A stretch of DNA of 24,598 bases from Candidatus Micrarchaeota archaeon. Lineage in GTDB: Archaea > Micrarchaeota > Micrarchaeia > Anstonellales > Anstonellaceae. The stretch lies in contig JAHFEN010000001.1 in assembly GCA_023248455.1 (NCBI GenBank), forward strand, positions 1-24,598, given 5' to 3'. The stretch's first letter is position 1, and the number at the start of each line of letters is the position of its first letter. The translations under genes were made by a program, and so were the position numbers. The notes beneath the pieces are model-generated. The model saw only the letters and a program-made list of their open reading frames with translations, made no database searches and had not been told where the DNA came from. This document shows positions 2,787 to 10,683 of this stretch, piece after piece.

Positions 2787-2833
2787 GCCAATTTCTGCCG
2801 ATTTTCAGCCGTTGTCTCAGTGCCCTATATAAA
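2787..2833. promoter_or_regulatory. Third 11-bp repeat array (C) next to a strong TATA box (TATATAAA on +, TTTATATA on -)
   Basis: Minus-strand units tgagacaacgg, ctgaaaatcgg and cagaaattggc. TATA box at 2826-2833 with BRE-like GAAAAAC on its right side. Direction of transcription is unresolved. Confidence 0.45.
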
Positions 2834-2854
2834 GTTTTTCTGGAAATTACGAAA

Positions 2855-2910
2855 GCTCCGCAAGGGGCGTGGGAGGTGGGATGGAGCCTTCGGGTCTACC
2901 ATTCCCCTCT
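2855..2910 (+). ncRNA. Candidate structured small RNA or 5' leader with two tetraloop hairpins
   Basis: GCUCC-GCAA-GGGGC (GNRA loop), followed by a stem of about 16 bp with three bulges capped by C(UUCG)G. No family recognised. Confidence 0.45.
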
Positions 2911-2951
2911 ATTAATAACCCCTAATCTGGATACTGTTTCTAGATGGTGCC

Positions 2952-4538
2952 ATGCTCGCCGACATAGCCAAATCCGCGCCCCATTCGCCAGGTGTGTACC
3001 TATTCAAGGACAAGGCAGGCGCCATTCTCTACATCGGAAAGGCAAAAGACATACGGAAAAGGGTGGCTAACTACTTTTCTCGCGACATTTTGGACAGGAC
3101 TTCGCAAATGGTCTCGAACGCAGCTACTCTGGAGTTCATAGTAACAGACAATGAGTCCGAAGCCCTTTTGCTCGAAAGCGGGCTCATCAAGCAGCATTTC
3201 CCAAAATACAACATTGACTTGAAAGACAATGAAAAATTCACCTACATACTCATTACGGGCGAGCAATTCCCAAGGATGCTGCTGGTGAGGCGCAGCAGGG
3301 GAGGAAAAGTGAGGGTGCACGGCGGATTATACGGCCCTTTCACCTCCGGCTCCGCCCATGTACTTGTTGCTTCTACGCTTCGGAAGATATTCAAGCTGCG
3401 GACCTGCCGTGTGGGGCAGGGAAGGCCATGCCTGCAGTACCACCTGGGCTTCTGCATGGGCCCGTGCGCAGGATTGGTGACGCCGGATGAGTATGACAGG
3501 CAGGTGCAAAAACTCAGAGACGTGCTATCCGGCCGAAAAAAGCTCGAGGAAGTTATGGGTGAAATGGAAAAGGAGATGAAAAAATCCTCAACTGCGCACA
3601 ATTTCGAGCGGGCATTGGTGCTCCGCAATTCCATCCGTTCGCTTTCTTCACTCTTGGAGCGGCAGAAAATCGAATCGGCAGGGGAGGCAAATGAGGATTA
3701 TCTTTCGCTTGTGGCGCAAGGGGGAAGGGTGCATGTCCAGCTTTTCAGGCAAATTGGCGGCGTAATACGCGACAGGAAGAAATTCGAGTTCGAGGCTGTG
3801 GATGGAGATGCGCTCGGTGAATTCCTTCCAAGATTCTATGAAGCAGGCGGCATTCCAAGAAGGATATATGTTGAAAAGGAACCGGAATTGAAAGCTGCAG
3901 TGGAAAAATACCTGGCTGAAAAGCGGGGGGGACCTGTTTCACTGGTTGTTCCTGAGAAAGGGGACAAGAAAAAGCTGCTTGAGCTGCTTCTCAAAAACAT
4001 ACTTCTGGAAATTAGCGGGCACGCAGACCCTGCAATTGTGGAGCTCCAGCACGAACTTGGCATGTCAGCCCTCCCGCGGGTTATCGAGTGCTTTGACATA
4101 TCCAACCTATTCGGAACCAGCATTGTCGGCTCCATGGTGCAGTTCGTGAACGGAAAACCGAACAAAAGCAACTACCGCCGCTTCAAAATCCGCACAGTGG
4201 AGGGGCAGGATGATTTTGCTTCAATGAAGGAAATAGTTTTCAGGAGATATTACAGGATTAAGAGGGAAAATTCGACCCCTCCGGATCTCATATTGGTTGA
4301 CGGTGGGCCAGGCCAGCTTAATGCCGCTCTTTCCGCCCTTTCCGAGCTTCAGCTTTCCATTCCCTGCGTGTCGCTGGCAAAAGAATTCGAGGAAATCAAT
4401 CATCCTGACCTTTCCGAGCCAATCCGCCTGCCACGTTCCTCTCTGGCGCTCAAGGTTCTCCAATACGCGCGCGACGAGGCACACAGGTTCGGCATTGCGT
4501 ATCACAGGCTGTTGAGGAAGAAAAACTCGCTTAACTGA
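2952..4538 (+). CDS. uvrC: Excinuclease ABC subunit C (lacks the C-terminal HhH2 domain)
   Basis: GIY-YIG (GVYLF...LYIGKAKDIRKRV), Cys cluster, FERALVLRN UVR motif, RNase H-like IECFDISN/DLILVDGGPGQ, and RDEAHRF. Confidence 0.97.
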   Translation: MLADIAKSAPHSPGVYLFKDKAGAILYIGKAKDIRKRVANYFSRDILDRTSQMVSNAATLEFIVTDNESEALLLESGLIKQHFPKYNIDLKDNEKFTYILITGEQFPRMLLVRRSRGGKVRVHGGLYGPFTSGSAHVLVASTLRKIFKLRTCRVGQGRPCLQYHLGFCMGPCAGLVTPDEYDRQVQKLRDVLSGRKKLEEVMGEMEKEMKKSSTAHNFERALVLRNSIRSLSSLLERQKIESAGEANEDYLSLVAQGGRVHVQLFRQIGGVIRDRKKFEFEAVDGDALGEFLPRFYEAGGIPRRIYVEKEPELKAAVEKYLAEKRGGPVSLVVPEKGDKKKLLELLLKNILLEISGHADPAIVELQHELGMSALPRVIECFDISNLFGTSIVGSMVQFVNGKPNKSNYRRFKIRTVEGQDDFASMKEIVFRRYYRIKRENSTPPDLILVDGGPGQLNAALSALSELQLSIPCVSLAKEFEEINHPDLSEPIRLPRSSLALKVLQYARDEAHRFGIAYHRLLRKKNSLN

Positions 4539-7350
4539 GCACTCTCTTCAGATACTGCCCTGTATAGCTGTCCTTGTTCCTCATCACGTCCTCTGGCGTG
4601 CCTGTGGCAATTATTTCACCGCCGTTATCCCCGCCCTCGGGTCCCAAGTCAATTAGGTAATCCGCTGATTTCACCACGTCTAGGTTGTGCTCTATAATCA
4701 GCACTGTGTTGCCCTTGTCCACCAGCCTTTGCAGCACTGCGAGAAGTTTCGAGACGTCCGCAAAGTGCAGGCCTGTTGTTGGCTCGTCCAAGATGTAGAA
4801 GGTTGTGCCAGTGTCCCTCTTGGAAAGCTCGGCAGCAAGCTTTATCCTCTGCGCCTCGCCCCCTGAAAGCGTGGTCGCAGGCTGCCCGAGCGAAATATAC
4901 CCCAGCCCTACATCGTTCATGGTCTCAAGCTTGCTCTTTATCGCGGGGATGTTCTGGAAGAAATTCAGCGCCTCCTCCACGCTCATGGAGAGCACGTCGT
5001 GCACGTTCTTGCCCTTATAGCGTATCTGAAGCGTTTCAGAATCGTATCTCTTTCCTTCGCATTCCTCGCACGTTACATAGACATCTGGCAGGAAGTTCAT
5101 CTCAATCTTCTTCACACCGTCGCCCTCGCAAGCCTGGCACCTTCCCTTCTGCACGTTGAATGAGAACTGGCCAGGTTCATAGCCACGCGCCCGCGCCTCT
5201 GGTACTCCTGCGAAAAGCTCGCGAATCGGCGTGAATGCGCCTATGTAAGTGGCTGGGTTGGAGCGTGGCGTCCTGCCTATGGGCGACTGGTCGATCGCTA
5301 TCACGCTGCTCACGTTCTCAGCGCCCTCTAACCTGTCAAATTTACCCGGCTCCTCGCGCGACCCATTGAATCGCTTCATCAGCGCCTTGTAGAGTATTTC
5401 ATTTATGATGGTGGACTTGCCCGAACCTGAAACGCCGGTTATCCCGACAAAAACGCCAAGCGGTATCCTCACGTCTATTTTCTTGAGGTTGTTCTCGCGC
5501 GCCCCCCTGACCGTCATCCAGCTTCCAGGCTTGCGCCTGATGCCTGGTGTGGGTATGAACTGCTCGCCGCGAAGGTATGCGCCTGTAAGCGATTCCTTGT
5601 TTTTTTCTATCTCCTTCGGGGTTCCTGCCGCCATCACCCTGCCGCCATGCACCCCGGCTCCAGGCCCAAGGTCCACCATGAAGTCCGAGCTCCTCATGGT
5701 CTCTTCATCATGCTCCACCACGATTAGCGTGTTTCCCAGGTCGCGCAGCGATTTCAGCGTTGCAATCAGCTTGGCATTGTCCCGCTGGTGCAATCCAATC
5801 GATGGCTCATCAAGCACGTACAGCACCCCTGTCAGGTTTGAGCCAATCTGCGTTGCCAGCCTGATTCTCTGCGCTTCGCCGCCCGAAAGCGTCCCTGATA
5901 TGCGGGATAGCGAAAGATAGCCCACGCCGACGTTCAGCAGGAAATCCAGCCTCGCAAGCACTTCCCGCAGCACAGGCTTTGCAATTGTTTCCTCGCTCTT
6001 GCCCAGTCGAAGCGATGTAAAAAAGCCATAAGCAGAGTCAATGGAAAGGTCAGTGACCTCTATTATGTCCTTGCCATTCACTTTCACCCCAATCACTTCG
6101 GGAATCAGCCGCTTTCCCTTGCAGGACGGGCAGGGAAGCTCGCGCATGAACCTCTCCATCTCCTGGCGCCTGTATTCGGATTGCGTCTGCCTGTGAAGAC
6201 GCTCTAGATTTGGGATGACGCCCTCGAATTTGGAGCTGCCTTCCCAGGATGAGTCGCCGCTTTTGGATTCCAGCCTGTAGCTTATTTTCTCGTCCGAACC
6301 GTAAAGGATCGCCTTCTTCGCCTCTTCGGCAAGCACATTCCACTGCGTGTTCACCGAAAAGCCGAACTTCTCCCCAAGCCCTGCAAGAAGCTGCTGGTAA
6401 TAGCCTCCCATCATGGTATTTTTCCAGGGCAAAACCGCTCCCTCTGCAAGCGTCTTCCTCTTGTCAGGCACTACCAGCTCCTCATCGAATTCAATCTTCA
6501 CACCAAGCCCGTGGCACTCAGGGCAGGCGCCGTAAGGCGAGTTGAATGAGAACATCCTGGGCTGCAGCTCGCCGACCGATATGCCACAGTCAGGGCAGGA
6601 GTTTTTCTGGGAAAAAAGCAGCTCCTTTTTTTCCAGCAGCACTATTACCAGCCCTTCCCCGCCTTCGCGGATTCCGGTTTTCAGCGCTTCGAGGAGCCTC
6701 TGGCGGTTCTGGTTGGTGGCTGTGAACCTGTCCACAATCACCTCGATTGTGTGCTTCTTGTTCCTGTCAAGCCTGGGAATGCGGCTTCCAAGCTCCATGT
6801 GGTTTCCGTTCACGCGCACCTTGGAATACCCCTTTTGCTGAAACTCGTCGAAAAGTTTCTCATAGGTGCCCTTCTTGCCGCGGATTACAGGCGAGATAAC
6901 TTGAACTGCCTTCCCCTCCCCCTGCTGCAATATGGCATTTGCCATCTGGTCAGTGGTCTGCGTGGTGATCCGCTTGCCGCATTTAGGGCAGTGCGGTATG
7001 CCTATTCGCGCATAAAGCAGCCTCAGGTAGTCGTAAATCTCGGTTGCAGTGCCCACAGTGGAGCGGGGATTCTTGCTGGTGGTCTTCTGCTCGATTGAAA
7101 TGGCGGGCGATAGCCCGTCAATCGTGTCAACATCCGGCTTGTTCATCACGCCCAGGAACTGGCGAGCATAGGATGAGAGCGACTCCACGTAGCGCCTCTG
7201 CCCCTCGGCATATATAGTGTTGAACGCAAGCGTGGATTTTCCAGAGCCAGAAATTCCAGTGACAACAGTAAGCTTGTTGCGCGGTATCTCAAGATTGATG
7301 TTCTTAAGGTTGTGCTGCCTTGCGCCCTTTATGACTATTTTGTCCTGCAT
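4531..7350 (-). CDS. uvrA: Excinuclease ABC subunit A
   Basis: [10 protein letters not shown], two Walker A motifs ([18 protein letters not shown]), LSGGEAQRI twice, and zinc fingers. Start taken at ATG 7350 after GGAGAGG. Confidence 0.98.
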
Positions 7351-7438
7351 TTTAAGCCTCTCCAAATGCCTAGTGGTCGCCTAGTTATGCCGAAGAAGCT
7401 TTATATCCTGAGCTACACTACAATTCCAGTGCAGGGTG

Positions 7439-8708
7439 TCAATTTTCCAGGGTCTTATTGAACCATTTCGGTATTTTTGAATAGGCCGCTGCTGCTTCGC
7501 TTTGCTTTTTCCGGTAATATATCGTTCCCGCATCTCCAATTTTTTTTGCATAGTTCTTTATTCGCAAGTAAAATGTTAATCCACCCTGCATACTCGTTTT
7601 CATCCCTGCACGCTATCAGACCCGGGCATTCGCCATGCGGGTCCATTCCTTCTTTAATAAAATGAGAGACCAGGGCCGGAATCCCAGCTTCCATTGCATC
7701 GAGCGTCTTGCTTGAGCTTCCAGCTCCGCTTTTTATAGATAGAAAATAGATCTCCGATGAGGCGACCATCTCACGGTAGTTTTTGACATTTTCCAGAATT
7801 TCAATACTAATGGCAGAATCTTCTTTCTGATACGATCTGATTTTTTTCCGCAAGGTTTCACCCGGGTTTATGCCCATTATCAGCACATTTGTATTAATCT
7901 TTATTTTGGGAAATACCTTTTCAATTGCATAATCTAGGTAGTCCCTATTCGGCTTGTAATCCCAGGGTCCTGATATTATTATTCCATACCTTTTCTTTGC
8001 CTTAATTTCTGCGGCGGGCTTCCTTAGAAATGGCAGCACCTAGAATTCACCCTCCTTTAAACCTAGCCATCTGCCGTCCCTGCTGTTTATGAAAGCCAAT
8101 GTTTCGAATTTCCTTGCCATCTCCAATTCGAATCTCCTAGATATGAAACCATCGAGTTTCATCAAATAGCGTATGATCGGGTTATCTTCAACTTTTGACA
8201 AATTGCCATAAAGAAATGATATCGAGTCGCACAAATCCAAAATTTTATTCGGCTTCTTAATGTTCCTGAAATAGAGCCCGCCTAGGACTCCAAAGGCAAA
8301 TATGTGTTTTATATTCCCGGTTTCTATTATTTTGTATAGTTCTCTCTCCGCCCTTTGTGAATAATACGGTGAAAAAAACAGTGGGCTGCCGTATCTCAAG
8401 GCATTCCAGGCCATTCTTGTAAAAAATGGAATTTCCGGCAGTATTGACAAATTCCGAATTATATTGATTATATCGCTTGTGGATTGCATCCTGTCAAAAC
8501 CACAGTCAATCCGGTGTTCTTGTTTTATCGCGTTCCCCAGGTCTATCAATTCCTTTTTTCCCTTTTTTTCAAAAACATAGATGAACACTACATCATAGAT
8601 ACTGCTCAGGAATTTGATCTCGCCGCTTATGAGATTTCCATATCCTCCAATATACGGGTAATCATGCGCAAAAAATGCAACTTTAACCCTCTTATTTGCC
8701 TTTGTCAC
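7439..8708 (-). pseudogene. GT-B fold (GT4-like) glycosyltransferase disrupted by an in-frame TAG (8040-8042) and an apparent +1 frameshift in an A8 run (7540-7547)
   Basis: ORFs 8040..8708 and 7455..8039 share a frame and are separated only by TAG (...EGEF*VLPF...). N-terminal KVAFFAHDYPYIGG; C-terminal GSSSKTLDAMEAGIP (GT4 E-x7-E-like region). Removing one A gives ELCKKIGDAGTIYY...TLEN* ending at 7439. GC is low. Confidence 0.75.
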
Positions 8709-10683
8709 GGTTCTTTTCCCCCTTTATAGATGTTTTCTTGCCCCGGGGTTTCCCCTTTCCAATTGTTCTTTGCACATCCAGCAGCTGGTCGCGGAGCTCG
8801 ATCGCCCTCTCAAAGTCAAGGTCCTCCGCTGCCTTCTGCATCTCCATCTCAAGGTTGATTGAAAGGGCCCGCAGGTCCGCCATCCCCAACTTCTTTTCAT
8901 CCTCCTTGAGCTCAAGCTGCGAGGCGCCAACATTCTTCTGTATTGTTTTGGGCGTGATACCGTGCTTTCTGTTGAAGTCTTCCTGCACCATCCTCCTACG
9001 ATCAGTTTCGCGCATAGCTGCGTCAATCGCCTCTGTTCTCTTGTCGCAGTAAAGTATCACAGTGCCGTTGACGTTGCGGGCCGCACGCCCAATAGTCTGG
9101 ACAAGGGAGGTCTCATTCCTCAAAAAGCCCTCCTTGTCCGCATCCAATATTGCCACAAGCGACACTTCAGGTATGTCCAATCCCTCTCGCAAAAGGTTGA
9201 TCCCCACCAGGCAGTCGAATTCCCCCAGCCGAAGCCTCCTGATTATTTCAGTTCTTTCCAATGTCTCGATTTCCGAATGCAGGTAGCGCACCTTGATCCC
9301 CTTCTGGGTCATGTAGTCCGTCAAATCCTCGGACATCCTCTTGGTGAGCGTGGTGACAAGCGTCCTCTCGCCATTCTGAGCCCGAAGCTGCACCTCCCTC
9401 ATCAAATCATCGATCTGCCCCTTGGACGGGCGGATGGAGATCTGCGGGTCCAAAAGTCCGGTTGGGCGGACAAGCTGCTCCACCACCTGGAAAGAGTGCT
9501 CACGCTCGTATACCGATGGCGTGGCAGAAACAAATACCACATTTTTCAGGTAATTCTCGAATTCCTCATATTTGAGGGGCCGGTTGTCGTATGCGCAGGG
9601 CAGCCGAAAGCCGTAGTCAATCAGGTTTTTCTTGCGAGTGTGGTCGCCGTGGTACATCCCATGCAGCTGGGGTACGGTCACGTGCGATTCGTCAATCACG
9701 ATGAGCGCGTCATCGGGCAGGAAATCCATGAGCGAATAGGGCGGCTGGCCCGGAGAACGGCCGTCAAAGTGCCGCGAATAATTCTCAATGCCCTTGCAAT
9801 AGCCAAGCTCTTCTATGAGCTCCAAATCGTAATTCGTCCTTGTCTTGAGCCTGTGCGCCTCAAGGTCTGAAAGCTCGGGCAACCTCTGCCCCAGTTCGGT
9901 CCGGATGTCGCGAAGCGCCCGCTCGCGCGTTCCCATCGGAACGATGTAGTGCTTGGCAGGGAAAATCCGCACCTCCTCCAGCTCTTCCAGGGTTTTTGCT
10001 GAAACCGGCTCAAGCACCTGTATTTTCTCCACCACGTCCCCATTCAATATTACGCGTATTATTTCCTGCTGGTAGCCAGGAACCACGTCGATGGTGTCGC
10101 CCTTCGCCCGGAAAACCCCTGGCTTGAGCTCAAACTCGTTCCGTTCATACTGTATTGAAATAAGCGAGGCAAGAAGGGATGATCGCACCACGGTTGCGCC
10201 CTTCCGAACATCCAGCGACATATCCAGCCATTCTTTTGGCGAGCCAAGCCCGTAAATGCATGAAACCGTGGAAACAATGACAGCAGGGCCAGGTGACAGC
10301 AGGTACGCAGTGGACTGAAGCCGCAGCCTCTCGATTTTCTCGTTTATCTGCGCATCCTTCTCTATGTACGTGTCGGTCTGCGGTATGTAGCTTTCGGGCT
10401 GGTAGTAGTCATAATAAGAGACAAAGTAGCCAACTTTGTTTTTCGGGAAGAACAGCTTGAATTCCGAGTAAAGCTGCGCTGCAAGTGTCTTGTTGTGCGA
10501 AATCACCAGGCAGGTCTTCCCTGTTTTCGCTATGAGATTGGCAACCGTGTAAGTTTTGCCAGAGCCGGTGACTCCAAGCAGCGTCTGCATTCCCTTTGCT
10601 CTAACTCCTGAAACCAGCTTTTCAATCGCCTCAGGCTGGTCGCCTGCCGGCTCGAAGGGCGCCTCTAGCTTGTAATTGAGCAT
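8692..10683 (-). CDS. uvrB: Excinuclease ABC subunit B
   Basis: PAGDQPEAI, LGVTGSGKT, YFVSYYDYYQPE, DESH, GINLLREGLD, and C-terminal UVR motif FERAIELRD. Confidence 0.98.
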   Translation of the reverse strand: MLNYKLEAPFEPAGDQPEAIEKLVSGVRAKGMQTLLGVTGSGKTYTVANLIAKTGKTCLVISHNKTLAAQLYSEFKLFFPKNKVGYFVSYYDYYQPESYIPQTDTYIEKDAQINEKIERLRLQSTAYLLSPGPAVIVSTVSCIYGLGSPKEWLDMSLDVRKGATVVRSSLLASLISIQYERNEFELKPGVFRAKGDTIDVVPGYQQEIIRVILNGDVVEKIQVLEPVSAKTLEELEEVRIFPAKHYIVPMGTRERALRDIRTELGQRLPELSDLEAHRLKTRTNYDLELIEELGYCKGIENYSRHFDGRSPGQPPYSLMDFLPDDALIVIDESHVTVPQLHGMYHGDHTRKKNLIDYGFRLPCAYDNRPLKYEEFENYLKNVVFVSATPSVYEREHSFQVVEQLVRPTGLLDPQISIRPSKGQIDDLMREVQLRAQNGERTLVTTLTKRMSEDLTDYMTQKGIKVRYLHSEIETLERTEIIRRLRLGEFDCLVGINLLREGLDIPEVSLVAILDADKEGFLRNETSLVQTIGRAARNVNGTVILYCDKRTEAIDAAMRETDRRRMVQEDFNRKHGITPKTIQKNVGASQLELKEDEKKLGMADLRALSINLEMEMQKAAEDLDFERAIELRDQLLDVQRTIGKGKPRGKKTSIKGEKNRDKGK

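Follow-up and report, generated by a model that had tools for sequence, protein, structure and literature searches.

A predicted structured RNA of the archaeal order Anstonellales, located upstream of uvrC in a Micrarchaeota genome

Does the pair of hairpins that precedes uvrC in a Candidatus Micrarchaeota genome belong to a leader controlling that gene, or does it form an RNA gene in its own right? The window analysed here, a stretch of 24,598 nucleotides, is part of a genome assembly of 927 kb that is 55% complete. A preliminary description of the locus had proposed either a stand-alone small RNA or a translational-control leader (uORF or thermometer) of uvrC, and all the sequence strings it quoted are present at their coordinates. 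Judged from comparative sequence analysis, the element is very probably a gene that stands on its own in a single copy, encodes a structured non-coding RNA of approximately 58 nt and was inherited through the Anstonellales. The family of this predicted RNA, new but of a broad kind already known, is near-universal in this order of small genomes and is found there in single copy.

Organization of the locus upstream of uvrC

The predicted RNA (2855 to 2912, plus strand) was delineated as a covariance-model family, and its two ends were placed by inference from the spacing to a TATA box and from the point where conservation stops. The TATA box (2826 to 2833, plus strand), which is nearly invariant within the genus, is separated by 21 nt, previously given as about 20 nt, from hairpin 1 (2855 to 2868), a 5'-terminal stem-loop that, as had been claimed, is comprised of 5 bp and, in this genome, a GCAA loop. 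It is followed by a purine tract, GUGGGAGG (2869 to 2876), which resembles a Shine-Dalgarno (SD) sequence and was recognised by column information and motif counts. The tract runs into hairpin 2 (2872 to 2910), supported by RNAalifold and pair counts, which carries a UUCG loop here and a variable apical loop family-wide. The stem of about 16 bp originally reported for hairpin 2 corresponds to its single-sequence fold, which has 16 pairs; the conserved fold obtained with RNAalifold has 15, arranged as 5 bp, a U bulge, 7 bp, a 1x3 internal loop and 3 bp. The near-invariant core of this hairpin (2883 to 2900) contains two G-C pairs, A2885 facing positions 2896 to 2898 (NNA), and a G-Y and a C-G pair.

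Three further plus-strand features overlap or follow the RNA. The 14-codon ORF with its AUG at 2881 (2881 to 2925) was correctly placed in the preliminary description, ending 26 nt before the uvrC ATG at 2952; it is not conserved, and we judge it incidental. A TATA-like box (2910 to 2917), located 42 nt before the same ATG and overlapping the 3' end of the RNA, probably represents a separate uvrC promoter. The uvrC gene (2952 to 4538; TIGR00194) lies outside the element and is its neighbour in this genus only. In the window, uvrC, uvrA and uvrB are clustered (2952 to 10683), and with the query used uvrC was found throughout the family but in only three of 16 other genomes of the order. Periodic repeats of 11 bp are present at 2787 to 2808, 2113 to 2145 and 1172 to 1204, near an ArsR-like gene (1727 to 2035); one of these arrays, which ends 17 nt before the TATA box of the RNA on its left side, could not be recognised in the upstream regions of relatives.

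Structural conservation and distribution

The two-hairpin fold displays a z-score of -2.1 on the plus strand versus -0.3 on the minus strand, more than expected by chance. For the 58-nt core the z-score is -2.8, and one of 3000 58-mers drawn at random from the genome reaches an equally good fold. Conservation is stronger evidence for a real element than folding energy. RNAalifold, applied unaided to the genus alignment, recovered the same 20 pairs; in the genus MAFFT alignment (A3) 98.4% of the cells are paired, with double-sided change in only five of the 20 pairs. In an alignment of 70 diverse homologues (A4), 94.7% of the cells are paired, compared with 48 to 62% in slid controls. The compensatory changes that the preliminary description had suggested looking for in relatives affect 15 of the 20 pairs of A4, including all five pairs of hairpin 1, counts that overstate covariation since A4 had been fitted to the model and the related genomes are not independent. 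Across the homologues, G-U combinations outnumber A-C combinations by 194 to 23, which fits an RNA read from the plus strand and not a DNA cruciform.

The structural conservation on which that description had made its proposal depend was found in 21 of the 22 genus relatives and, using a broader model (R3) for the order-wide search, in 125 of the 151 sampled genomes of the order and 58 of the 62 high-quality genomes; the model built from the genus (R2) matched 119 of the 151. The R3 matches are distributed over 38 of 45 genera and 11 of the 12 sampled families, nearly always as a single copy, and such persistence despite the rearrangement of neighbouring genes points to lasting selection. It is believed that archaea with small genomes require few non-coding RNAs. 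Exact-pattern matches in GTDB are all from Micrarchaeota, two of them labelled Anstonellaceae, and we infer that the order carrying the RNA is the Anstonellales. The covariance model can be used directly for annotation.

In the R3 search the element was not found in five genera of one family (f9) nor in a second family (f3); in two of the f9 genomes without a match, the S2 gene runs directly into the EF-1alpha gene, leaving no space for the RNA. No credible model match was obtained in approximately 100 sampled genomes of other Micrarchaeota orders, and the two model matches outside the order (E ~0.3) both lack the core. The core pattern, searched over 401 genomes of the class, gave one match outside the order versus three control matches. 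Outside the order, no homologue was found beside EF-1alpha or beside the divergent gene described below, and no copy was found in viral and phage collections. A REP or MITE repeat was ruled out by the presence of one copy in the source genome and in nearly all relatives. Possible paralogues were noted in two genomes: in G035 (L257:500-590) a second TATA-led hairpin has the purine tract and lacks the internal loop, and in G034 (L194:1317-1420) two copies of the RNA are arranged in tandem.

Promoter and gene status

The distance from the start of the TATA box to the first base of hairpin 1 is 25 to 32 nt in 62 homologues, with a mode of 29 nt, and the start of hairpin 1 stays fixed relative to the box although the length of the hairpin varies. 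The distance from the box to the conserved tract is far looser (34 to 75 nt). Since leaderless genes of the source genome have their TATA box peak at -31 to -28, and the SRP RNA promoter of the same genome displays the same geometry as the RNA's TATA box, transcription is predicted to start near G2855. The stand-alone small RNA envisaged in the preliminary description is thus favoured by a TATA box of its own at a near-fixed distance, by compensatory changes on one strand, by single copy number and by independence from the neighbouring genes, all of which is sequence evidence. Three metatranscriptomes of the same study yielded no contig showing the organism over this stretch, which speaks neither for nor against transcription.

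Read on the minus strand, the TATA box likewise conforms to a BRE-TATA consensus, and in 34 loci a divergent gene is present that may share it. Together with the single copy number, this would be compatible with a DNA-level site (a cruciform, origin or operator) beside the TATA box of a leftward gene. Such a site is nevertheless highly improbable, given the excess of G-U over A-C and the presence of RNA-type tetraloops on one strand, and given that loci with a plus-strand NAC gene upstream, where no divergent user is possible, retain the spacing between TATA box and hairpin 1.

The divergent gene (L153:69-1406, minus strand, and its homologues) encodes a repeat protein that is rich in Cys, anchored in the membrane and unmatched in Pfam, is arranged head-to-head with the RNA in the 34 loci, and possibly shares the TATA box with it. 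The protein is present in 47 of 47 RNA-positive and in none of three RNA-negative genomes of the order, with weaker matches in other orders. It was rejected as a partner of the RNA, because it occurs outside the order with no RNA nearby and because linkage can explain the joint loss.

Relation to uvrC and other neighbouring genes

A leader acting in cis on uvrC, or on any gene placed after the RNA, whether as a uORF, a thermometer or an attenuator, would account for the same-strand adjacency to uvrC in most loci of the genus. Among the loci examined, however, uvrC is located downstream of the RNA only in this genus, where the gap between the two is 19 to 213 nt, 1124 nt with two genes in between, or approximately 2.6 kb. 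Elsewhere in the order the RNA is followed in 19 loci by EF-1alpha and in further loci by genes such as those for a HAD hydrolase and proteasome beta. A convergent gene, verified with Pfam, comes next downstream in at least five loci, the convergent neighbours encoding Trm5, Asp/Asn-tRNA ligase, Lrp, an HTH-CBS protein and an ankyrin protein. A TATA-like box within 22 to 50 nt of the uvrC start is present in 15 of the 21 genus loci, those with long spacers included; the six loci with no visible uvrC TATA box may be read through, and in two loci of the genus the uORF is in frame with uvrC. Among the genus relatives, the regions upstream of uvrC diverge freely except for the TATA box, the 21-nt spacer and hairpins 1 and 2.

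The SD and AUG are indeed buried in hairpin 2, as had been pointed out, but the start codon is unconserved: of 85 homologues, 53 have AUG, 13 GUG and four UUG at this position, and 15 have no start codon while keeping the stem. The AUG within the stem varies together with its partner strand, ACG and GCG being seen with the pair retained, and the ORF ranges from 3 to more than 110 codons in changing frames. The SD and AUG are spaced by 2 nt here, versus a GGUG-to-ATG mode of 5 to 7 nt in the source genome. The hidden SD, which is not that of uvrC, remains paired in silico throughout 10 to 80 °C, with an unpaired probability of 0.15 to 0.23. RNA thermometers and uORF leaders likewise hide an SD and AUG in a stem, but the element differs from them by its very stable stem, its unconserved start codon and ORF, and its lack of a fixed downstream gene. 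The uORF leader and the thermometer of the preliminary description are both rejected in view of the missing start codons, the unconserved ORF length, the genus-restricted adjacency, the convergent neighbours and the absence of melting, and a cis-acting leader of any of these types appears very unlikely.

In genomes similar to G014 (L096:6049-7066), a gene pair resembling nucleotidyltransferase and HEPN genes was recognised by eye between the RNA and uvrC; the first gene of the pair has no Pfam match.

Conserved core and comparison with known RNA classes

The fixed core of the RNA can be written as GG-A-GC facing GY-NNA-CC: both core G-C pairs and the A on the 3' side of the loop are present in all 70 homologues, and the A on the 5' side in 69 of them. 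The purine tract carries 1.3 to 2.0 bits per column, compared with 0.6 to 1.1 on its pairing strand. In the alignments it is thus the 1x3 internal loop and the purine tract that are conserved, and not the tetraloops, which had drawn attention in the preliminary description and turned out to occur in a minority (of 85 homologues, 25 have C(UUCG)G; GNRA closes hairpin 1 in 14 of 70). Neither apical loop is fixed in sequence or length, and the same is true of hairpin 1, which is absent from a few homologues and probably shields the 5' end of the RNA.

In agreement with the earlier statement that no known family could be recognised, neither the window nor eight diverse homologue loci gave a match at or above the gathering threshold in Rfam 15, where only irrelevant matches with E > 1 were obtained. 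A literature search, most subscription papers being outside its scope, found no description of the RNA. The archaeal SECIS element is built of a stem, an asymmetric 1x3 loop, a 3-bp GC-rich helix and a variable apical loop, with GAA in the 5' strand of the loop and A in its 3' strand, and is located within the 3' UTR of an mRNA. The Anstonellales RNA shares this layout of stem, 1x3 loop, 3-bp GC-rich helix and variable apical loop; it was rejected as a SECIS element because its loop is mirrored, A standing in the 5' strand and NNA in the 3' strand, and because it has its own promoter.

Box C/D and H/ACA guides were excluded, as no C/D boxes, K-turn, ACA tail or guide pocket were found among the conserved positions, and a Y RNA was rejected, as no Ro60/TROVE match (PF05731) was found in five genomes, two of which carry the RNA. 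A detached piece of SRP, RNase P, 5S or 23S RNA was discarded since all of these are present as separate genes, and a missing piece of 23S RNA in particular since the L1 stalk is intact. A trans-encoded SRP helix 6 was rejected because a short SRP RNA and lack of SRP19 are found phylum-wide, with or without the element: the SRP RNA copies read lack helix 6, also outside the order, and SRP19 (PF01922) was not found in 151 genomes. The Micrarchaeota SRP RNAs are mostly about 260 to 270 nt long (L079-L083, L271-L290; source genome C130:5000-5266). Two 23S rRNA genes span 4057 nt (G019, L248) and 5113 nt (G032, L250), which implies large insertions or introns.

Orphan structured non-coding RNA motifs (PMC2864571, PMC5737381) are likewise intergenic, with covarying stems, a conserved internal loop and no assigned function; unlike these, the present RNA is confined to one DPANN order, in which it is near-universal, and has its own archaeal promoter. 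The archaeal ribosomal leaders of eL15, S15 and L4 (PMC7247131) are also small structured archaeal RNAs with possible rRNA mimicry, but each acts in cis on one gene, whereas the Anstonellales RNA switches neighbours and can face a convergent gene.

Putative function

Our overall reading, to which we assign a probability of roughly 0.5, is that of an independent non-coding RNA gene whose product acts by binding a protein, probably a translation-related one. The RNA would be transcribed from its own TATA promoter, starting at about G2855, and would terminate in a U-rich stretch after hairpin 2; the variable hairpin 1 would cap its 5' end, and the long stem would present the near-invariant 1x3 loop and the purine tract to the protein, leaving hairpin 1 and the apical loops free to vary. 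Sites that bind proteins are usually marked by invariant internal-loop bases in surroundings that vary, and the near-invariant loop bases on an otherwise free scaffold therefore favour a small RNP or a decoy. The possible link to translation is drawn from recurrent neighbours of the RNA, which include the translation genes NAC, EF-1alpha and S3Ae; this is weak evidence, such genes being common neighbours in compact archaeal genomes. The conservation of the purine tract can also be explained by pairing in trans. The RNA points to an unrecognised RNA-protein or RNA-ribosome function in these host-dependent archaea, and it is short enough for synthesis, so that binding to uL1, to the 30S subunit or in cell extract can be tested directly.

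A tentative and distinctly less probable possibility is a housekeeping translation RNA that would control ribosome supply, either as a mimic of an mRNA start or as a ribosomal-protein decoy; genomes of roughly 1 Mb would then retain the RNA beside tRNA, rRNA, SRP RNA and RNase P RNA. As a start mimic, an opened hairpin 2 would let its SD and AUG dock on the 30S subunit, parking or titrating ribosomes with no meaningful peptide being made. The predicted pairing to the 16S tail has a median of -12 kcal/mol and reaches -9 kcal/mol or lower in 63 of 85 homologues, compared with -5.7 for the uvrC start region; a start-type codon is kept in 70 of the 85, and conservation is higher on the SD strand than on the opposite one. 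We consider this mimicry rather unlikely nonetheless, as the SD is buried in a hairpin of -21.7 kcal/mol, the 2-nt spacing and the missing start codons are unfavourable, and in one genus (g10) the SD is weakened (about -6 to -7) although the 16S tail is ordinary.

Doubtful, and less probable again, is that the RNA serves ribosomal protein uL1 as a decoy or buffer, a narrower form of the protein-binding reading in which the core would be a compact mimic of 23S H77/H78. Details of uL1 sites beyond the lineage's own sequences are general knowledge. The 23S site of the genus reads AUGG-GA-GCC / GGC-G...A-CCAU and the commonest RNA core AUGG-A-GCC / GGU-GUA-CCAU, so that the flanking helices and loop-closing bases are nearly identical; the preferred U-A pair and the two invariant G-C pairs match the H77 helix, the purine tract is similar to the 5' strand found in uL1 sites, and the rpl1 leaders of these genomes bear L1-type sites. 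It is established that uL1 binds the same type of target in rRNA and mRNA (PMC2175363). The RNA, however, lacks the G of the tandem GA, and its 1x3 loop differs from the 2 nt facing at least 5 nt of the 23S and leader sites; with no tandem G-A/A-G pairs and no longer 3' loop strand, it falls outside the uL1-site class. An alternative L1-like fold reaches only -2.9 kcal/mol versus -21.7, uL1 and its leader site are also found in a genome outside the order, and the RNA, unlike L1 operators (PMC2175363), is stand-alone and not ahead of ribosomal-protein operons. About equally improbable is a trans-acting sRNA that would pair via the purine tract or the pyrimidine-rich 3' arm. The purine tract is conserved on one side only and the 3' arm is by construction complementary to SD-AUG regions, but the two arms are already paired with each other, a complementary stretch in the SRP RNA of the genus is not kept order-wide and shows no covariation, and neither a covarying site in the 16S rRNA of genus g10 nor a 23S site common to three genomes was found.

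In the rpl1 leaders (L242-L245, at about 1400 to 1460), an apparently circularly permuted uL1 site is located over the SD, and these leader sites suggest L1 autoregulation in Micrarchaeota.
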